Shown: positions 2,598 to 63,345 of the stretch, in pieces
Layout: every line of letters starts with the position of its first letter
Position numbering within the stretch: position 1 is the first letter of the stretch
NCBI GenBank assembly: GCA_030650025.1
Contig: JAUSEN010000015.1
Location: 13,728-77,727, forward strand
From: Candidatus Magasanikiibacteriota bacterium
GTDB lineage: Bacteria > Patescibacteriota > Patescibacteriia > Magasanikbacterales > GWA2-37-8
Direction of reading: 5' to 3'
Length of the DNA stretch: 64,000 nt
Made by a program: the position numbers and the translations under genes
Notes under the pieces: generated by a model
Told to the model about the DNA's origin: nothing
Seen by the model: only the letters and a program-made list of their open reading frames with translations
Database searches by the model: none

Positions 2598-3914
2598 ATG
2601 TTGACCAAACTCAAGCGCCTTGGGCATTGGTTTATTGCCATTGGCGCCTATTGGTTTTATGGCCGCCCTTCGCGCCACCTGGTTGTTATTGGCGTGACTG
2701 GCACTAAAGGCAAGTCTTCCACCTGTAGTTTTATTGCCTCGGTTTTAAAAGCCGGCGGTTTTAAAGTCGGCCTGCTTTCCACCATTGAAATTGAGATCAA
2801 TAATGAAATAATACGAAATAAAAATCAGATGACCATGCTGGGCCGCGGCCAGATTCAAAAATATTTGGCGCGGATGCTTAAGGCCGGTTGCCAATATGCT
2901 GTGATCGAAACTTCGTCCGAGGGCATATTACAGCATCGGCATCTTGGCCTTAATTATGACATCGTTGTGTTTACGAACCTTGGCTCCGAGCATCACGAGC
3001 GCCACGGTGGTTTCCTTAATTTGAAGCGTGACAAGGGCAAAATTTTTGCTGGCCTCGAGCGCTCATTCCCAAAAATTCTGGGCGGTCGCCGGGTTAAAAA
3101 GACCATTATTGCCAATGTGGATAGCTCGGACGCGGAATATTTTCTTAAGTTTTCCGCCGCTGTTAAGCTTGGTTTTTCCATAAAAAATGCCAACCCCGGA
3201 GCCAGCGCCCTGTGTTCTCAAGTATTTACTGCCAAAAATATTAGTAGCCACGACGCGGGCGCTGACTTCGAAGTTTTTGGGAACCGCTATCATCTCGAAA
3301 TGCTTGGCGAATTTAATATTTATAACGCTCTCCCGGCCATTGCGATTGGCGACGCGATAGGGCTCGCTCCTGAACAAATTAAATTGGGGTTAAACAGCGT
3401 CAAACAAATTCTCGGACGCTTACAATTTATTAACGTTGGCCAGCCATTTTCTTTTGTGGTTGATTATGCTCACGAAGTCATAAGTTTAACCGCGCTGTTT
3501 AACGCTCTGCGCCCGCTGGTTAAGCCGCCCGGGAAGCTCATCGGCATAATCGGTTCTGATGGCGGTGGCCGTGATAAATCCAAACGTTTTAACATGGGCG
3601 CTGTCGCGGGAGAGCTTTGTGATTATGTTATCATCACAGATGTCAACCCCTGGGACGAAGATTCAGAGGAAATTGCTCAGATGTTAGCGGCCGGAGTGAG
3701 AAGTTCTGGCCAGGTGGATAATAAAAATTTGCATATAATTATTGATCGGCGTGCGGCAATCAAGGAGTCTTTTAATTTGGCTGGAGTCGGTGGCGTAGTC
3801 GCGCTCACCGCTAAAGGCACTGAAACCGCGATTATTGGTAAAAACGGCCAGCGCCTGGCTTGGGATGATGCTGGTATTGCCACTGAACTCCTGCGTCGTT
3901 TTTTAAACAATTAA
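2598..3914 (+). CDS. Mur ligase family protein (MurE/MurT/CapB-like ATP-dependent amide ligase)
   Basis: P-loop GVTGTKGKSST after an N-terminal hydrophobic segment; central and C-terminal Mur-ligase-like regions; start moved to ATG 2598 to remove overlap with upstream gene. Confidence 0.7.
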   Translation: MLTKLKRLGHWFIAIGAYWFYGRPSRHLVVIGVTGTKGKSSTCSFIASVLKAGGFKVGLLSTIEIEINNEIIRNKNQMTMLGRGQIQKYLARMLKAGCQYAVIETSSEGILQHRHLGLNYDIVVFTNLGSEHHERHGGFLNLKRDKGKIFAGLERSFPKILGGRRVKKTIIANVDSSDAEYFLKFSAAVKLGFSIKNANPGASALCSQVFTAKNISSHDAGADFEVFGNRYHLEMLGEFNIYNALPAIAIGDAIGLAPEQIKLGLNSVKQILGRLQFINVGQPFSFVVDYAHEVISLTALFNALRPLVKPPGKLIGIIGSDGGGRDKSKRFNMGAVAGELCDYVIITDVNPWDEDSEEIAQMLAAGVRSSGQVDNKNLHIIIDRRAAIKESFNLAGVGGVVALTAKGTETAIIGKNGQRLAWDDAGIATELLRRFLNN

Positions 3915-52396: not shown

Positions 52397-52831
52397 TTAT
52401 TTAGAAGAAGATATTTTTCGATATTTATTGCCAACCCGTAATCTCGACAACGCTTTTTCCATACTGGCTTGCAAAGTTACGTATTCCACGTCGTCTTTAA
52501 AACGGGCTGAAGACATTAAACTGGCGGCTTTCGCTCTCGCCTCTTCCGCGCGCGCCAAATCAATCTCGGTGGCGTGTTCAGCCGTATCCGCTAAAATAAC
52601 CACTTCACTTTTCGGTTTCACTTCAATAAACCCAGTGGAAACCGCGATCAGCTTCTCCTCTCCATTTTTAACATAGCGCAACTCACCAGGCTGCATTAAG
52701 CTCACCAGCGGAATATGATGAGGCAAAATTGTGATTTCGCCGGTTTTAGTCATAACTGTAATCTGGGAGACTTCATCGCTAAAAACCACGCGCTCGGGAG
52801 TAATAATTTTAAATTTGATTAAATCAGCCAT
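52397..52831 (-). CDS. atpC: F1 ATP synthase epsilon subunit
   Basis: N-terminal beta-sandwich KFKIITPERVVF...GEITILPHHIPL, C-terminal helices; last gene of atp operon. Confidence 0.85.
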   Translation of the reverse strand: MADLIKFKIITPERVVFSDEVSQITVMTKTGEITILPHHIPLVSLMQPGELRYVKNGEEKLIAVSTGFIEVKPKSEVVILADTAEHATEIDLARAEEARAKAASLMSSARFKDDVEYVTLQASMEKALSRLRVGNKYRKISSSK

Positions 52832-52840
52832 AAAAACAAA

Positions 52841-53089
52841 TTATTGATATTTAACCGTCTCATCAAAATCTATTATGTGTTCTCCGGTCTCCAAATCAAA
52901 ACTTAACCTGCAGTGCCACTGCTGGTTCCTTTCATCAAATTTATTTCCAATATAAACACAAGTTTTTCCAGCATCCTGCATTTCATCTTTTAGATAAGTA
53001 AAACCTCGTTCAGATAAAATAGATTTTGCTTTTATTCTGCAACTTTCTCTATTAAGTTCTCTCGTTTTCTCAATAGTTAATTCCGACAT
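52841..53089 (-). CDS. hypothetical small protein, AT-rich, inserted between atpD and atpC
   Basis: 82-aa ORF with markedly lower GC and AGA/ATA-rich codon usage than flanking atp genes; three Cys and several His; no recognised domain. Confidence 0.45.
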   Translation of the reverse strand: MSELTIEKTRELNRESCRIKAKSILSERGFTYLKDEMQDAGKTCVYIGNKFDERNQQWHCRLSFDLETGEHIIDFDETVKYQ

Positions 53090-53095
53090 AAAAAA

Positions 53096-55398
<2,303 letters not shown>

Positions 55399-55404
55399 AT
55401 AAAA

Positions 55405-58140
55405 TTAAGCCCGCGCCTGGCGCCGAGACAATAATCTGCTAATTAATACTTTGGCAATTTCCAAAACAATTACTACCGTCAATGCCACCGGTAAAATAAT
55501 AAAATAATCATTAAGCGCTAAGGAAAAAGTGTTAAAAGGTTTGTGGAGAATTGGCCAATACACCACCGCCCCAAGTAAAAGCAACTCCCACAAGACGGCG
55601 CGATTGAGCCACTTATTACTAAAGAAATTACGGAACATTGTAATTGATTCCGAACGAAACGCGTACGCTTTAATAAATTCAACCAACACCAAATTGACAA
55701 ATATTATTGTCATGACCTCACTCTCTGGCCTACCTTGGCCAAGCAAAAATATAAATAAAGCGATATTGATTACCATGGACCAAACGCCCCCGGTTAACAT
55801 TAAAGCCACAACCGGCTTCGTAAAAATGCCGGTTTTAAGATTGCGGGGCTTTTCGGACATCAAATTCTTGCGCGGCGGGTCTACGGCCAAAGCCAAAGCC
55901 GGGAGCCCATCGGTCGCGAGGTTAACATACAAAATCTGCACCGCCGTGAGCGGCAACGGGAGGCCTATTACCGTCGCGCCGACCATGATGCCAATTTCAC
56001 CGATATTGCTAGACAAAAGATAAGTTAAATATTTTTTAATGTTTCCAAAAATAATTCTCCCTTCTTCAATCGCGGCCACGATGGAAGCAAAATTGTCATC
56101 AAGGAGAAGCATATCCGCGGCTTCTTTAGCCACGTCCGTGCCGGTAATACCCATGGCAATGCCAATGTCGGCTTTTTTAAGAGCCGGAGCGTCATTAACG
56201 CCATCTCCTGTCATCGCGACCACGTGCCCGCGCGCTTGCAGGGCCGTTACCACGCGTAATTTATGCTCGGGAGAAACGCGCGCGCAAACATCGACCGACT
56301 CAATTTTATTCTCCAATTCTAACGCTGACATTTTTTCTAGTTCCGGGCCTGTTACTACTACGCCCGTCGCATTAATTAAACCCAGTTCGCGCGCAATGGC
56401 TTCGGCTGTAATGGGGTGGTCGCCGGTAATCATCATCACTTTGATTCCGGCGGCGCGACTGGTGGCAATAGCCTCGGCCGCTTCTAAGCGCGGCGGGTCA
56501 ATCATGGCCGCTAGTCCCAAAAACACCAATTCACTAGGCTTAGTGCCAAGCGCCCCGCTCTCTTTGGAAGCTATCGCGATTACCCGGAGCGCTAATTTGG
56601 AAAAATCTTCGACTTGGTTTTGTATCATACGCCGGTAGTCGTCTGTTAAGGGCGAGAAACCGCTGCCAGTCGCGATCTGGGTGCAAAAACCGAGCACGAT
56701 CTCGGCCGCGCCTTTAGCATACTGAATCTCGTAGTCAGAAGTTTTGTGAGCCGTGGCCATAAACTTATCTTCGCTACTAAAAGGAATTTCTGCGACTCGC
56801 GAGTATTCGCTGTCCAGCTCGGTTTTAATCAAACCGGCCTTAGCCGCCGCGACTACCAAGGCCCCTTCAGTGGGGTCGCCTTTAATATCCCACTGTTTGG
56901 CTTCATTCTCAATTAAATGCGCGTCCGAGCAAAGCGCGCCGGCCTTCAAAAACTCCAAAAAGCCGCCCTCGACCAAAACCGGTTTATCGCTAGCCAAAAA
57001 ATCACCCTCTGGTTCATACCCCGCGCCAGTTACATCAATAATCGGTCGCCCCGGCAAATAGATCTTGCGCACCGTCATTTCATCTTTTGTGAGAGTGCCG
57101 GTTTTATCCGTGCAAATTACGGTGGTCGCGCCGAGAGTCTCTACGGCCGGCAACCGCCGAACCAAGGCGTTTCTCTTAACCATTCTTTGTACGCCAATAG
57201 ACAAGGAAATTGTCACCACGGCCGGCAGCGCCTCTGGTACCACGGCCACGGCTAAAGCCACGCCAAACAATAATATTTCCACGAGTGGCGAGCCCCGAAA
57301 CAGACCAACCCCAACAATCACCGCTACGATTACAAACGCCGCCTGCGCCAAGCGCTTACCTACCACTGCCAAATTCTTTTGCAAAGGCGTGACCATGGAA
57401 ACGACCTCCTGAAGCATTCCGGCGATCTTACCAATTTCTGTATTCATTCCCGTCGCGACCACGACCGCGAGGCCTCGGCCATAACTGATATTAGTAGAGG
57501 CAAATACCATATTTTTGCGATCGCCCAAGGCCGCGTCTCTCGCCGCGATTGCTTCGGAGTGCTTTTCCACGGGTACAGATTCACCTGTCAAAGACGCTTC
57601 CTCGGCCTTCATATTAACCGACTCGATAATTCTGGCATCCGCCGCGATTCTATCGCCAGCCCCTAAAACTAAAATATCGCCGGGCACAATCTCTTCGGCC
57701 AAAATTTCGACCTCTTGCCCGCCGCGTAAAATGGTGGCGATTGGCGCCGCCATTTTTTTCAAAGCTTCCATGGCCTTTTCCGCCCGAAATTCTTGAACAA
57801 AACCCAAAATAACGGCAAACAAAACAATTACGCCAATCGCAATAGCTTCTACCGCGTGGCCAAGAAACCCGGACAACGCCACGCCCAAAAGCAAAATAAT
57901 AACTAAAATATTTTTAAACTGGCCTAAAAATACAGCGAAGGGAGAGATGCTTTTAGTCACAGCTAACCGGTTCAACCCAAATTGCGCCAGGCTGTGCTGG
58001 GCTTGTTCCACAGTTAATCCGCGGGTGCTCTCTGACCCGAGACTTTTTAGCACTGCCTCGCTGGTTTTAGAGTGCCATGGCTCTTGGCTAGAATCTGTCA
58101 TGATAAAAACTCTGTTAAATGGATTTTTTAAATTGCTCAA
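55405..58140 (-). CDS. P-type cation-transporting ATPase (type IIA/IIB Ca2+/Mg2+-like) embedded in atp operon
   Basis: Phosphorylation motif [13 protein letters not shown]-like actuator (TGESVPVEK), [30 protein letters not shown], 10 TM helices; an alternative ATG at 58101 would remove the 26-nt overlap with atpA. Confidence 0.9.
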
Positions 58141-59644
58141 TCGCGTCTTGCAAATCTTTGGCCACTGACTCGTCCCAAATACCAGAAGCGATTTTAGTTA
58201 ACAGCCCGCTCTGGCTCTGGTTTAAATAAGCCTGCAATTTATCCTCCCAATCTCTGATATTTTTTACGTCCACGTTATTAGCCAAACCATTCGTAATCGC
58301 GTAAATAATCGCCACTTGGTTAGCTACTGGCATCGGCTGATACTGCGGTTGTTTTAGAACTTCTACCAAACGCTGGCCCAAATCAATTTGTTTCTTGGTC
58401 TCCGGGTCAAGATCACTAGAAAATTGGGCGAAAGCTTCGAGCTCACGAAATTGCGCTAACTGTAATTTGATTTTTCCGGCCACTTTTTTCATGGGTTTAA
58501 TTTGGGCGTTAGAGCCGACCCGCGAAACCGAAATGCCCACGTTCACCGCCGGGCGAATACCGCGGTAAAATAAATCTGCTTCCAAAAATATCTGCCCATC
58601 GGTAATGGAAATTACGTTAGTTGGAATATAAGCCGTTACGTCTCCAGCTTGCGTCTCAATAATGGGCAGAGCCGTAATTGAGCCTCCCCCGGCTTCTTTA
58701 TTCCGCCGGCAGGCGCGCTCTAATAATCGTGAGTGTAGGTAAAAAACGTCTCCCGGGTAAGCTTCGCGGCCCGGCGGACGACGGAGCAAGAGCGACACTT
58801 CGCGGTAAGCCCAAGCCTGCTTGCTTAAATCATCATAAATCACCAGGACATCTTTGCCCTGGTCCATAAAATATTCAGCGATAGAAACACCGGCGTAAGG
58901 CGCGATAAACAAGAGCGCGGCCGAGTCCGAAGCGCCTGCGGAAACTACGACTGTGTAGTCCATCGCTCCGGCTTCTTTTAATTTAGCAACCAAACGGGCA
59001 ACTTTGGATTCTTTTTGGCCAATCGCTACATACACGCAAATCATATTCTGATCCTTCTGATTGATGATAGTGTCGATGGCGAGAGACGTTTTACCAGTTT
59101 GCCTGTCGCCAATAATAAGCTCGCGCTGGCCGCGCCCGATTGGAATCATAGCATCGATTGCTTTGATTCCGGTTTGCACCGGCTCCGAGACTGGCTCGCG
59201 AGTCATAACCCCGGGAGCGATTCTTTCAATCGGGTAAAACTTCTTAGTGGTAAAAGCGCGGCCGCCATCAATTGGGCTACCGAGCGGGTTCACTACCCGG
59301 CCAATCAATTCTTCGCCGACCGGCACGGACAGAATGCGACCGGTGCGCTTGGCAGTATCGCCCTCTTTAATATGTTTAAATTCGCCCAAAATTACCACCC
59401 CCACGGTTTCTTCTTCTAAATTTAAGGCTACTCCGTAAGTGACCTGACTGGCCCCGTCATTCGACGGGGTTTTCATTTCACTCAAAAATTCAATCATCTC
59501 GTTAGCTTGGCATTTAGTTAAGCCACTCAATCGAGCGATGCCATCCCCAATCTCTTCCACTTTCCCGATTTCGGCGACGGCTACTTGCTGTTCAAAATCA
59601 GCAATGTGTTTTTTTAACTCGGCAATAATCGAATTAGTAGACAT
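58115..59644 (-). CDS. atpA: F1 ATP synthase alpha subunit
   Basis: P-loop [18 protein letters not shown]. Confidence 0.95.
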
Positions 59645-59650
59645 ATTGAT

Positions 59651-60040
59651 TTAATTTACAAGCTTAATTTTTAAATTTTTTAACTGCGTTTTTACGGTCG
59701 CGTCAAAAATCAAATCCCCGCTCGCCACCAAAAATCCTCCGAGTATCTCGGCGTTCACCAAAACTTTAGATTCAATTTTCTTGCCAAAAGCTTTGGTAAT
59801 ATTATGGAGCGCTTTCTCATCAAGCTCCCGAGCCGTGGTCACTGTAACCTCTTTAATTCCGGCTTGAGCCTTGCTGATGCGTTCAAACTGCTCCAAAATT
59901 TGCGGCGCTTTCTTTAGCAATCTTTTATTTGCCAAATAACCCACAAATTTTTTGGCGATGCCGGAGACCGCGCTCGCGGGCGCGGTGCTGATCACTTCAT
60001 AAAACGCCTGGGCTAATTTTTGTGGGCTATTAACGGCCAT
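59651..60040 (-). CDS. atpH: ATP synthase delta (OSCP) subunit, short form
   Basis: 129 aa; C-terminal GGFLVASGDLIFDATVKTQLKNL matches the OSCP C-terminal signature; N-terminal helical bundle shortened. Confidence 0.65.
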   Translation of the reverse strand: MAVNSPQKLAQAFYEVISTAPASAVSGIAKKFVGYLANKRLLKKAPQILEQFERISKAQAGIKEVTVTTARELDEKALHNITKAFGKKIESKVLVNAEILGGFLVASGDLIFDATVKTQLKNLKIKLVN

Positions 60041-60042
60041 AA

Positions 60043-60606
60043 TTATTTGTTAACGTCAATCTTTTTAGCTAAATCACTAATCAAAACTTTGTCTTTTTCG
60101 CTGGTTAATTTTTCTTTAATAATTTTTTCGGTTATCATCGTAACTAATTCAACCGTCTGCAATTTTAATTCGGCCATCATACTGCTTCGCTCTTCAGCTA
60201 GGCCGCGCTTGGCCTGAAGAGCAAGAGCTTCAATTTCTGCTTTGGCTTTGGCGCGCACTTGGTTGGCTGCCACCACTGCTTCTCCGGTTGATTTTTCGAT
60301 AATTTTTGAGGCTTCGGCTTTGGCCTCATCAATTTTAGCTTGATATTTCTGTTCGCTGTGTCGCAAATTTTCGTCTATCTTCTTGGCATTCTCTAAACTG
60401 TCATCAATCAAATTCTGCCGTTCTGTCATTTTTTTAGTGAGCGGTTTCAAAATCAGCCACCAAATCACGGCCGCTATTATGGCAAAGTTAATAAATTGAG
60501 AAATAAGCATGCCCCCGTTAATTCCGAGGTCCCCGAGCACCCCACCAGAGGATTCGGCCGCCCCCGCCCCAATTTCGGACGCGTAGGCAATATCAATAAA
60601 GTTCAT
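60043..60606 (-). CDS. atpF: ATP synthase Fo subunit b
   Basis: N-terminal TM helix then long charged coiled-coil; operon position. Confidence 0.7.
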   Translation of the reverse strand: MNFIDIAYASEIGAGAAESSGGVLGDLGINGGMLISQFINFAIIAAVIWWLILKPLTKKMTERQNLIDDSLENAKKIDENLRHSEQKYQAKIDEAKAEASKIIEKSTGEAVVAANQVRAKAKAEIEALALQAKRGLAEERSSMMAELKLQTVELVTMITEKIIKEKLTSEKDKVLISDLAKKIDVNK

Positions 60607-60677: not shown

Positions 60678-60980
<303 letters not shown>

Positions 60981-61041: not shown

Positions 61042-61824
61042 CTAATGCTCGGCACCGTGCGGTTCACTGCTCGCGATCGTCATATAAACAATAGTTAACA
61101 TCGCGAACACACTGGCCTGAATAATGCCCACCAGTAATTCTAAAAGCATGAATGGCGTTGGCACTAAAACTGAAACTAAACTAAGCATCACCATCATCAA
61201 GACTTCACCCGCGAAAATATTGCCAAATAAACGTAGCGACAGCGATAAAACCTTGGCTAATTCACTGACAATCTCGAGTAACCCCACCGCGAATTCCACC
61301 AAAGCCGTCAAAACAGCAACCGGCCCCTTTTTTAAGCTCTTGATTACCGAACCGATTTGCACAAACTTATTAAGATGAGTAAAAATTCCCACACTTAAAA
61401 AACCAAACACATGCGAAGAGACCACGGCCACGAGCGCCATAGCTACTGTTAAGTTTAGATCCGTATTGGCCGGCCGAAGAATCGGTTCCCCCTGCCAAGT
61501 CAGGCTACCCGTACCAGGAATTAAACCCAGCCAGTTCGAAAATAATATAAAGAAAAATACCGACCCTACTATTGGCAAAAATTTAAGAGTGGTTTGCCGG
61601 CTTTGAGTGACTTGGTCAAAATATCCAAGCAAAATTTCTAAAAAATATTCGCACCAATTTTGCAATCTACCAGGGCGGAGAGCGGCTTTTTTAGAGATGA
61701 AGTACCCCAAAATTAAAAACCCTACCAGAGCCAGCCAAGTATTAATCATGGTATTAGAAACCGCCACGGGCCCAACGTGGAAGAGAGTTTCGGCGGCTAG
61801 TGGTGGAATGTGAGGCGCGGCCAT
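61042..61824 (-). CDS. atpB: ATP synthase Fo subunit a
   Basis: Signature LSLRLFGNIFAGEVLM with essential Arg. Confidence 0.85.
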   Translation of the reverse strand: MAAPHIPPLAAETLFHVGPVAVSNTMINTWLALVGFLILGYFISKKAALRPGRLQNWCEYFLEILLGYFDQVTQSRQTTLKFLPIVGSVFFFILFSNWLGLIPGTGSLTWQGEPILRPANTDLNLTVAMALVAVVSSHVFGFLSVGIFTHLNKFVQIGSVIKSLKKGPVAVLTALVEFAVGLLEIVSELAKVLSLSLRLFGNIFAGEVLMMVMLSLVSVLVPTPFMLLELLVGIIQASVFAMLTIVYMTIASSEPHGAEH

Positions 61825-61842: not shown

Positions 61843-62139
61843 TTATTTTTTGCCAGCACTTTTACTATCAGACATTTTTTGATATTCCTGCCCGTATATT
61901 TTAGCCTTGCGATAAATTAATTTAGCCGAAAGTATCGCCGCCAGCACAAAGCCTATGATCAAATACCGTGGCTCGGTACCCTGCCGATTATCCAACCACT
62001 GCCCCAAAAGCGCCAATATTACAATCGGGACTGCAATCGAAGCGCCAAAGTCCCCTACAATCCGAAGCGCGAACATATAATACGCTCTGTCCCCTCCTGT
62101 TCGCGGCGGCAAGGAATTTTTTTGGCTTAAATCAGGCAT
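61843..62139 (-). CDS. AtpZ/AtpI-like small membrane protein of atp operon
   Basis: 98 aa, two TM helices, position immediately upstream of atpB. Confidence 0.5.
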   Translation of the reverse strand: MPDLSQKNSLPPRTGGDRAYYMFALRIVGDFGASIAVPIVILALLGQWLDNRQGTEPRYLIIGFVLAAILSAKLIYRKAKIYGQEYQKMSDSKSAGKK

Positions 62140-62213
62140 AAAACAACGCGCATAGTATATCGGTTTTGCTCGATAAGGTCAAGCATTTTTTTATTTAAAC
62201 TGTGAATAAACAT

Positions 62214-62414
62214 TTAATCAAATAATACGGCTTGGTATAAAGAAAAACCAGTAATTACTACCAACCCCAAAAACACCATTGTTGGTAGCCATCGCGAACG
62301 CTTCCTAAAACGATGCATTATATCGTCAATAAGCAAAAAAATAAAGAACCACAATCCGGCAAACTGGAAAAAAAATAATAAAAATATGCCCATTATTTCC
62401 AACAATCTAGTCAT
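62214..62414 (-). CDS. hypothetical small membrane protein
   Basis: 66 aa, two hydrophobic helices; overlaps tatD start by 8 nt. Confidence 0.35.
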   Translation of the reverse strand: MTRLLEIMGIFLLFFFQFAGLWFFIFLLIDDIMHRFRKRSRWLPTMVFLGLVVITGFSLYQAVLFD

Positions 62415-63345
62415 TTAACTTAATTTTATTGAATAAATATAGGGCATTTTGCGTAGTGGCCTTAACAACTTCATCATAAGAAACACCGCGAATCTCCGCA
62501 ATTTTTCTGGCGGTAAACTCTACCATCCACGGCTCGCCTCGCTTTCCGCGATGAGGCACGGGTGACAGATACGGGCAATCAGTCTCAAGCAAGATTCTCT
62601 CGAGCGGCATTTTCGCCACCACTTCTAGTAAATCTGCTTGCGCTTGTGGATTTTTTTTAAGCGGCGGAAAGGTGATCACGCCAGTAAAACCAATATAAAA
62701 CCCCATCGCTAAATACTTTTGCGCGTTTTCCCAATTGCTCGTATAGCAGTGAATCGTGCCGGTAAGCGGTGAGACCCCACCCTCGCCCTCCCCTTTGCGA
62801 AGGGGAGGGGAATCGTCGTCCCCCCTCCTTTGCAAAGGAGGGGGGAGGGGGAGGTCTCGCGTCGCATCTTGTAAAATTTCGATCAACTCCTCATGCGCCT
62901 CGCGGCAATGTATCACCATTGGTAAGTTTGTTTCTTTGGCAAGCCTAATATGCTCTAAAAAAACCTGCCTTTGCTTGGGTAGCATTTGCTCTTTACTTAG
63001 GCCCTCGGGAATTCGATAAAAATCCAAGCCGCATTCCCCTATCCCGATTACTTTCTCGCTCGCGCAAAGTTTTTTATAATATTCAAAATTAAATTCTTCT
63101 TCTCTTGATAAAAATGAAGTTTCTTCTTCATCCACAAACTTGCTAAACAAATGCTCGGGGTGGAGCCCAACGCTCGCAAAGACATTTTTAAAGCGCTCGG
63201 CCACTTCCACGGCCCTCTTACTAGTATCACTCTGGGTGCCGACCAAATTTATCACCACATTTTTGGATAAACTGCGTTTAATAACCTCGTCTGAATCAGC
63301 CTGATAGGCATTAAAATGCGCGTGGGCATGAGTGTCAAAAAGCAT
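62407..63345 (-). CDS. tatD: TatD-family metal-dependent hydrolase/DNase with in-frame low-complexity insert
   Basis: MLFDTHAHAHF N-terminus, GECGLDF, VIHCREAHE, IHCYTSNW, ETDCPYL motifs; about 30-aa Pro/Gly-rich insert encoded by element B. Confidence 0.85.
   Translation of the reverse strand: MLFDTHAHAHFNAYQADSDEVIKRSLSKNVVINLVGTQSDTSKRAVEVAERFKNVFASVGLHPEHLFSKFVDEEETSFLSREEEFNFEYYKKLCASEKVIGIGECGLDFYRIPEGLSKEQMLPKQRQVFLEHIRLAKETNLPMVIHCREAHEELIEILQDATRDLPLPPPLQRRGDDDSPPLRKGEGEGGVSPLTGTIHCYTSNWENAQKYLAMGFYIGFTGVITFPPLKKNPQAQADLLEVVAKMPLERILLETDCPYLSPVPHRGKRGEPWMVEFTARKIAEIRGVSYDEVVKATTQNALYLFNKIKLND
62771..62858. repeat. GC-rich nested-palindrome element B inserted in-frame in tatD
   Basis: Hairpins CCCTCCCCTT-tgcg-AAGGGGAGGG and CCCCCCTCCTTT-gc-AAAGGAGGGGGG flanked by GAGACC...GGTCTC; encodes DLPLPPPLQRRGDDDSPPLRKGEGEGGVSP. 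Confidence 0.45.

Follow-up and report, generated by a model that had tools for sequence, protein, structure and literature searches.

A P2A-type cation pump gene between atpA and atpG in the F1Fo ATP synthase operon of a Magasanikbacteria lineage

Why should a gene for a large cation pump lie between the genes for the alpha and gamma subunits of an F1Fo ATP synthase? The question is raised by a stretch of 64,000 nucleotides (nt) of contig JAUSEN010000015.1 (the window), which comes from a metagenome-assembled genome (MAG) of Candidatus Magasanikbacteria, a group within the Candidate Phyla Radiation (CPR; also called Patescibacteria). An earlier note on this DNA had described a P-type ATPase gene that separates atpA from atpG and shares their strand, and the listing of open reading frames (ORFs), combined with Pfam and NCBIfam assignments, bears this out; read along the minus strand, the genes are atpZ/I-like, atpB, atpE, atpF, atpH, atpA, P-type ATPase, atpG, atpD, an ORF of 82 amino acids (aa), and atpC. 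The explanation that we favour, as the probable one though well short of certain, is that a housekeeping P2A pump was captured once by the atp operon, that it acts as a stand-alone protein co-transcribed with F1Fo, and that it has been kept because it is useful.

The pump gene (MDO8626374.1) is intact, occupies positions 55405-58101 of the minus strand and encodes a protein of 898 aa. An AT-rich spacer of 13 nt (58102-58114) separates it from atpA (58115-59644, minus strand; TIGR00962, 777.9 bits against a cut-off of 484, together with Pfam domains), running from the atpA stop codon TAA at 58117-58115 to the pump ATG at 58101. On its other side the pump TAA (55407-55405) is followed by a spacer of 6 nt (55399-55404) and then by the ATG, at 55398, of atpG (54475-55398, minus strand; MDO8626373.1; TIGR01146, 290 bits against a cut-off of 194). 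Pump and atpA do not overlap. The longest ORF that can be drawn mechanically, 55405-58140, has 911 aa, begins with TTG and reaches 26 nt into atpA, and it was from this frame that the tight packing had been described; of that description the 6-nt gap to atpG stands, whereas the supposed 26-nt overlap with atpA arose from the choice of the longest ORF and gives way to a real gap of 13 nt. We rejected the TTG start because the orthologues begin with MTD... or MPA... at the ATG at 58101, and because both NCBI and Logan call a protein of 898 aa. The ATG at 58101 is the most likely start.

Five Pfam domains, Cation_ATPase_N, E1-E2, N-domain, HAD and Cation_ATPase_C (PF00690, PF00122, PF13246, PF00702 and PF00689), follow one another in the canonical P2 order over residues 22-899, and a score of 312.9 bits against TIGR01494 (cut-off 62.3) places the protein in the P-type superfamily. 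The motifs DKTGT (within DKTGTLT), TGES and MITGD and the hinge motif GDGxNDxP are intact, and all are conserved in P0001-P0003, the full-length pumps of the clade. When the NCBIfam models were ranked by score, IIA2 came first with 723 bits, followed by IIA1 (638), IIC (475), IIB (443), IIIB (432), IIIA (424) and IB (230). The earlier label of a Ca2+/Mg2+-type pump was therefore too broad: the protein is P2A and PMR1/SERCA-like, and types IIA lead the ranking, whereas IIB and the Mg-type (about 432 bits for the MgtA-type) fall far behind. The Mg-type models (MgtA/MgtB, P3B) were rejected outright, at 431.8 bits against a cut-off of 610.75 for TIGR01524 and 385.7 against 975 for NF011702. The PMR1/SPCA-type model TIGR01522 gave 723.5 bits, below its equivalog cut-off of 798.3, and the protein has Glu, not Ala, at the position of E771 in SERCA; the SERCA-type model TIGR01116 gave 638.5 bits, below its equivalog cut-off of 703.4. 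The best matches among solved structures were SPCA1 (615 bits), LMCA1 (600) and SERCA (486). As far as sequence can tell, the product is an intact P2A cation pump of the SERCA/SPCA/LMCA1-like kind.

The same arrangement was found in other assemblies. L001, a Logan assembly of SRR13727527, is 100% identical to the window over 7,840 nt across both pump junctions. More diverged loci came from other sequencing runs. In L002 (SRR22387922) the pump is 80% identical and lies directly upstream of atpG, preceded by a gene fragment lacking assignment. L003/L004 (SRR21621037/35) carry a pump that is 69% identical in the full order atpA-pump-atpG, and their wider flanks match those of the window (CvpA, TatD, atpZ ... 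atpC, ABC, AddA-like helicase, DciA, MreB). In L090 (SRR23702482) the pump is 68% identical and again directly upstream of atpG, on a contig that is cut inside the pump; the gene upstream of atpG in this locus was considered as a possible atpA and rejected, given that tblastn identified it as the C-terminal half of the pump. Among these diverged loci, atpA upstream of the pump is confirmed in L003/L004 only.

A neighbour-joining tree of atpG+atpD places the four pump-bearing loci in a single clade, with 199/200 bootstraps, nested in Magasanikbacteria. The sister loci L008, L086 and L088 share the flanking synteny, have no pump and are described as having atpA next to atpG. In the synteny comparison suggested in the earlier note, pump and atpG are thus adjacent in the diverged loci and the sisters have no pump, and the monophyly of the carriers together with pump-free sisters in the same flanking context points to one ancestral insertion. 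The full-length pumps P0001-P0003 are likewise monophyletic among 120 homologues, and the identities of pump and atpG fall together, being 100/80/69% in both. Since synonymous sites are saturated between lineages, with a proportion of synonymous differences (pS) of 0.75-0.80, we give pS and the proportion of nonsynonymous differences (pN) instead of the ratio of the corresponding rates (dN/dS). The pN of the pump, 0.136 and 0.240, is comparable to that of atpG, 0.130 and 0.210, and the pump GC content at third codon positions (GC3), 0.54, lies inside the range of its neighbours. The pump is under purifying selection; most parsimoniously, the gene was inserted once, long ago, and has since been inherited vertically under such selection.

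Whether the pump shares the transcript of the atp genes can be approached through the anatomy of its junctions. In the orthologues the junction between pump and atpG is a gap of 2 nt (L002) or 1 nt (L003), or an overlap of 11 nt (L090), and the gap between atpA and the pump in L003 is 2 nt. All junctions from atpF to atpC measure 2-13 nt and have AT-rich leaders with no Shine-Dalgarno sequence, so that the pump junctions are indistinguishable from the native junctions of the operon. Tight packing on one strand is weak evidence for operon membership in this genome because the operon sits in a co-directional array of ~30 kb (about 34087-63961 of the window), in which all ORFs of at least 200 aa lie on the minus strand with short gaps. 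The short spacers, on the other hand, leave no space for a separate promoter or terminator, which makes co-transcription the only reasonable reading; by this anatomy the pump is probably co-transcribed with the atp operon, as the earlier note had supposed.

Consistent with this, a comparison of the window with L003 found no conserved promoter-like or terminator-like site in the pump flanks. A weak TTGCCA-18-TATTGT in the 3' end of the pump gene of the window was considered as an internal promoter for atpG and rejected, given that it was not detected in L003 and that the bases conserved there are explained by the LEIAK codons. A candidate promoter for the whole operon, TTGACC-17-TATACT, lies at 62154-62182 on the minus strand, 15 nt upstream of the start of the atpZ/I-like gene, and matches the consensus at 10/12 positions. 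L003 has identical hexamers at the orthologous place (2976-3004, plus strand), although synonymous sites are saturated between the two loci. This element is likely to be the operon promoter, a function assigned from its match to the consensus.

What the pump transports is suggested by its ion sites. All three full-length pumps of the clade keep the equivalents of SERCA E309, N768, E771, N796, T799 and D800, and the site-II ligands E290, N727 and D731 (SERCA E309, N796 and D800) are invariant in 120/120 homologues. For site I, we used the alignment with SPCA1 together with published position equivalences (bioRxiv 10.1101/2020.06.23.166462), according to which the single-site pumps LMCA1, SPCA and PMCA all have Ala at the Glu771 position, and at the Glu908 position Arg (LMCA1), Asp (SPCA) and Gln (PMCA). 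In that alignment E702 of the pump falls opposite the Ala that SPCA1 has in place of SERCA Glu771, and E808 opposite the Asp that it has in place of SERCA Glu908. Given Glu at both places, both site-I carboxylates are present, which is a SERCA-like two-site make-up. The pump falls outside every NCBIfam equivalog and, on this evidence, would belong to a bacterial P2A subfamily that retains both SERCA-type site-I carboxylates. It is probably a Ca2+ exporter and, by homology, would counter-transport H+.

Position 808 is Glu in the operon-embedded clade and Gln in 104/120 relatives. Of the 21 substitutions in the pump that are specific to the clade, 7 fall in residues 746-818 (about 55648-55866 of the window, minus strand), around the site-I helix, and all seven are kept in L090; the hypergeometric P for this enrichment is 8e-4, for a stretch that was chosen post hoc. 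The cluster may stem from a change that affects site I or the way protons are handled.

The arrangement is unusual, as had been claimed. Among the best 80 atpG loci listed from GTDB species representatives, none has a pump in the operon (0/80), and among 80 listed metagenome loci with related pumps (57-62% identical) none has atp genes nearby (0/80), in flanks of up to 6 kb. Three other Patescibacteria pumps are located away from atp genes. In L005 (8870-12703) and L093 (513-4361) the pump, 61-63% identical, lies directly downstream of a gene for a nucleoside triphosphate (NTP) transferase of 360 aa, and the two NTP-transferases are 61% identical to each other; this site may be the older location of the pump in CPR genomes. 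The NTP-transferase gene that precedes the pump in these two genomes was not found within the 64-kb window. A clade-specific degenerate DNA pattern returned no further clade members from JGI metagenomes, and literature searches found no description of a pump between atpA and atpG. The arrangement is rare in what was sampled, a statement to which we attach lower confidence.

The companion claim, that the order alpha-gamma-beta is otherwise almost invariant, does not survive comparison with CPR relatives, which carry small genes at the atpA/atpG, atpG/atpD and atpF/atpH junctions. A 23S-rRNA-IVS insert of family PF05635 lies at the atpG/atpD junction of L006 (5024-5410), and another follows atpF in L024 (6428-6778). 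L008 (11057-11443 and 9657-9998) has both a PF05635 insert between atpG and atpD and a separate ORF exactly at atpA/atpG. Further inserts are a GIY-YIG nuclease in L022 (11089-11385) and a Bro-N protein with a Gp49/HTH toxin-antitoxin pair in L013 (5918-7481), and ORFs occur exactly at the atpA/atpG junction in L011 (9706-9993) and L017 (9541-9987) as well; the junction ORFs of L008, L011 and L017 are 95-148 aa long and unrelated. The atp operon is an insertion hotspot in related Patescibacteria. What sets the locus studied here apart is that its cargo is a large housekeeping transporter and has been kept for so long. Several of the third-party MAGs used in these comparisons (L006, L008, L009, L011, L017 and L018) are titled 'uncultured Gammaproteobacteria bacterium'. 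Their atp operons are closest to those of Magasanikbacteria or other Patescibacteria, and in the atpG+atpD tree they cluster with Patescibacteria; the Gammaproteobacteria labels are probably wrong.

Apart from the pump, the operon is that of an ordinary F1Fo enzyme. All eight structural genes (a, c, b, delta, alpha, gamma, beta and epsilon) lie on one strand in the canonical F1Fo order, the extras being the pump between alpha and gamma and the 82-aa ORF between beta and epsilon. The models for the alternate N-type F1Fo (alt_F1F0, NCBIfam) were not reached, at 74.9 bits against a cut-off of 282 for gamma and 642.6 against 750.5 for alpha. All of the following genes are on the minus strand. The operon opens with a gene for an atpZ/atpI-like small membrane protein (61843-62139), 18 nt upstream of atpB, which passes the gathering cut-off of PF09527 (ATPase_gene1; E 9.6e-12, 45.2 bits against 26.6); PF09527 is also found in its orthologues in L003, L086 and L088. 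There follow atpB for Fo subunit a (61042-61824; PF00119, E 4.8e-40), atpE for subunit c (60678-60899; PF00137, E 4.2e-17), atpF for subunit b (60043-60606; PF00430, E 2.8e-21) and atpH for delta/OSCP (59651-60040; PF00213, E 2.2e-23). The atpH product has 129 aa and matches profile positions 45-172 only. Delta/OSCP is short in L003, L086 and L088 as well (128-129 aa), and in this lineage a delta truncated at its N terminus seems to be normal.

Beyond atpG lie atpD for F1 beta (53096-54466; PF00006, PF02874 and PF22919), the 82-aa ORF (52841-53089), which has no match in Pfam or NCBIfam, and atpC for F1 epsilon (52397-52831; PF02823 and PF00401), followed on the same strand by an ABC transporter and then an AddA-like helicase. 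The 82-aa ORF is a compositional outlier, with a GC content of 0.325 and a GC3 of 0.253 against about 0.43-0.50 in its neighbours, and in neither L003 nor L090 is a separate gene called in the atpD-atpC interval; the ORF is probably either a small insert, acquired separately and later or recently, or not a real gene. Upstream of the operon, a TatD-like ORF (62407-63345, minus strand) contains a GC-rich nested palindrome at 62781-62854 (arms 62786-62811 and 62819-62844), which occurs once in the window and translates in frame as PLPPPLQRRGDDDSPPLRKGEGEGG. The TatD protein has 312 aa in the window against 282-284 aa in L003, L086 and L088, and the palindrome resembles a small palindromic element that has been inserted in frame.

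How, then, might the pump have come to stay? In the sequence of events that we favour, a complete P2A pump gene would have inserted once into the short spacer between atpA and atpG, in the ancestor of a narrow sub-lineage of Magasanikbacteria, and would have been passed on vertically since. With no promoter or terminator of its own, the gene would be transcribed within the atp polycistron from the promoter upstream of the atpZ/I-like gene, and its translation, across short spacers that look native, would probably be coupled to that of its neighbours. The product would be a stand-alone membrane protein, likely an ATP-driven exporter of Ca2+ in exchange for H+, rather than a subunit of the rotary enzyme, and would probably work with no direct mechanistic coupling to it. 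In a compact genome poor in regulators, cation extrusion would thereby be expressed constitutively together with the main membrane ATPase. The atp operons of this lineage tolerate insertions; this one would have persisted because its cargo is useful, and a pump with no promoter of its own could not readily leave the operon.

Several points weigh against this account. Retention in all four known descendant lineages, at a substitution rate like that of gamma, would fit equally well with the position having been selected for its own sake, in which case a functional coupling would be indicated. The operon is headed by a gene of the AtpZ/AtpI family, described in Pfam as a putative Ca2+/Mg2+ transporter, which keeps a theme of cation homeostasis alive. 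The case for co-transcription is drawn from anatomy, and scores under both the PMR1-type and the SERCA-type equivalog cut-offs leave Ca2+ the presumed substrate. Finally, lower confidence attaches to the rarity of the arrangement and to the pump's standing as the only P-type ATPase, which come from sampled surveys and from 64 kb of genome.

Of the other explanations, a chimera of assembly or binning, in which the pump gene was wrongly joined to the atp genes, is suggested by the origin of the window in a MAG. It is effectively refuted by the independent assembly that is identical over 7.8 kb across both junctions, and by three diverged lineages from other runs (pump 68-80% identical) that have the pump before atpG, in L003/L004 with atpA as well; flanking synteny is conserved, and the divergence of the pump tracks that of atpG. 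A recent horizontal acquisition on a mobile element, due to be lost like the small selfish inserts of relatives, would be in keeping with the GIY-YIG, toxin-antitoxin and 23S-rRNA-IVS-type inserts of related operons and with the spread over several phyla of the pump's nearest outside relatives (~61-63% identity). We nevertheless consider it very improbable: the pump has no flanking mobile-element genes or repeats and spacers of just 6-13 nt, its GC and GC3 match those of the host genes, and the insertion is older than the split of four lineages with saturated synonymous sites. It is also quite improbable, in our view, that the pump moves a cation other than Ca2+ (Na+, K+, Mn2+ or H+) and acts as an additional primary pump, setting a gradient that F1Fo uses or shares. 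Its scores below both equivalog cut-offs would allow this, as would its two site-I carboxylates, which set it apart from the characterised single-site pumps LMCA1, SPCA and PMCA; Na,K-type P2C pumps also have acidic residues at the site-I positions, and the matches within its bacterial family include no characterised member. Yet the six canonical Ca2+-site residues of SERCA and the E908 equivalent are all present, Ca2+ pumps match best, well ahead of the Na,K-, H+- and Mg-types, and databases name the relatives Ca2+-transporting ATPases, albeit by annotation only; moreover, an ATP-driven pump that fed an ATP synthase would be energetically futile.

There remains the idea that selection acted on the position itself, owing to a physiological tie between F1Fo and the Ca2+/H+ exchange that the pump carries out. 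The pump might keep cytoplasmic Ca2+ low so that F1 uses Mg-ATP, offsetting divalent cations that enter through the AtpZ/I-like protein, or it might provide H+ return or charge compensation when F1Fo pumps protons at the expense of ATP in a fermentative, respiration-less CPR cell. Retention in all four known descendant lineages and the very tight or overlapping junctions speak for such a tie, as does the PF09527 gene at the head of the operon, with its description as a putative Ca2+/Mg2+ transporter; a review credits AtpZ with helping Bacillus pseudofirmus to acquire Mg2+ (PMC4453477, citing Hicks 2003). Counter-transport of H+ is a property of P2A Ca2+ pumps, and LMCA1 has been linked to tolerance of alkaline pH (bioRxiv 10.1101/2020.06.23.166462), while how CPR bacteria generate and use proton-motive force is an open question (PMC9166423). 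The clustering of clade-specific substitutions in residues 746-818, with Glu at 808 where most relatives have Gln, could be read in the same way, although it was found post hoc. On the other side, no result here supports the coupling of ion pumping to the ATP synthase beyond shared transcription that the earlier note had envisaged. The nearest sisters share the operon and its AtpZ-like gene yet have no pump, pumps of this family were never beside atp genes in the 83 other contexts listed, and relatives have accepted unrelated ORFs at the same junction. A needed gene with no promoter cannot easily leave, so its retention requires no coupling. We regard selection for the position as unlikely, and as distinctly more doubtful its fullest form, a three-part module for divalent cations and protons (pump, F1Fo and AtpZ/I-like protein) in which placement between alpha and gamma was selected for joint production; such a module may protect Mg-dependent coupling in F1, or balance membrane potential and pH during hydrolysis by F1Fo.

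On the plain reading, in which the pump was captured and merely shares the transcript, the locus is a natural example of a large housekeeping gene that was taken up by a core operon and then locked in, and it shows that in CPR bacteria the order of the atp genes is far less fixed than textbook comparisons imply. For annotation, it flags a bacterial P2A subfamily with both SERCA-type site-I carboxylates that no NCBIfam equivalog covers. If the association proved to be more than hitch-hiking, it would offer a handle on the role of the near-universal F-type ATPase in respiration-less CPR/Patescibacteria, and would bear on the proton and cation balance of these cells (PMC9166423).

As a protein, the pump is closest to the P2A Ca2+-ATPases. 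It shares its full-length architecture, catalytic motifs and site-II residues with human SPCA1 (8iwp), Listeria LMCA1 (6zhf) and SERCA1a/2. It differs from SPCA1 in having PEALP, a form found throughout its family, where SPCA1 has PEGLP, which is the usual motif. At the E771 and E908 positions it has Glu, as SERCA does, in contrast to LMCA1 (Ala, Arg), SPCA (Ala, Asp) and PMCA (Ala, Gln). The mechanism expected by homology would be an E1/E2 phospho-enzyme cycle with Ca2+ moved out and H+ counter-transported (bioRxiv 10.1101/2020.06.23.166462). Its position inside an atp operon, by contrast, has no counterpart among the solved P2A pumps.

Accessory genes in atp operons are known, and a large pump at the alpha/gamma junction in a narrow CPR clade is apparently undescribed. 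Like the pump gene, atpI, atpZ (Bacillus pseudofirmus OF4) and orfX (Nonomuraea) are co-transcribed genes for non-structural membrane proteins within an atp operon, and AtpZ is implicated in divalent-cation (Mg2+) homeostasis (PMC4453477). These accessory genes encode proteins of roughly 70-130 aa and stand at the 5' end of the operon, before or next to atpB, whereas the gene described here encodes an ATP-driven pump of 898 aa and stands between the F1 genes for alpha and gamma. The selfish inserts of CPR operons (PF05635, GIY-YIG, Gp49/HTH and Bro-N) occupy the same kinds of junction. Those inserts, however, are short and patchy and vary between genomes, whereas the pump gene is large, has been kept in four diverged lineages and is under purifying selection.

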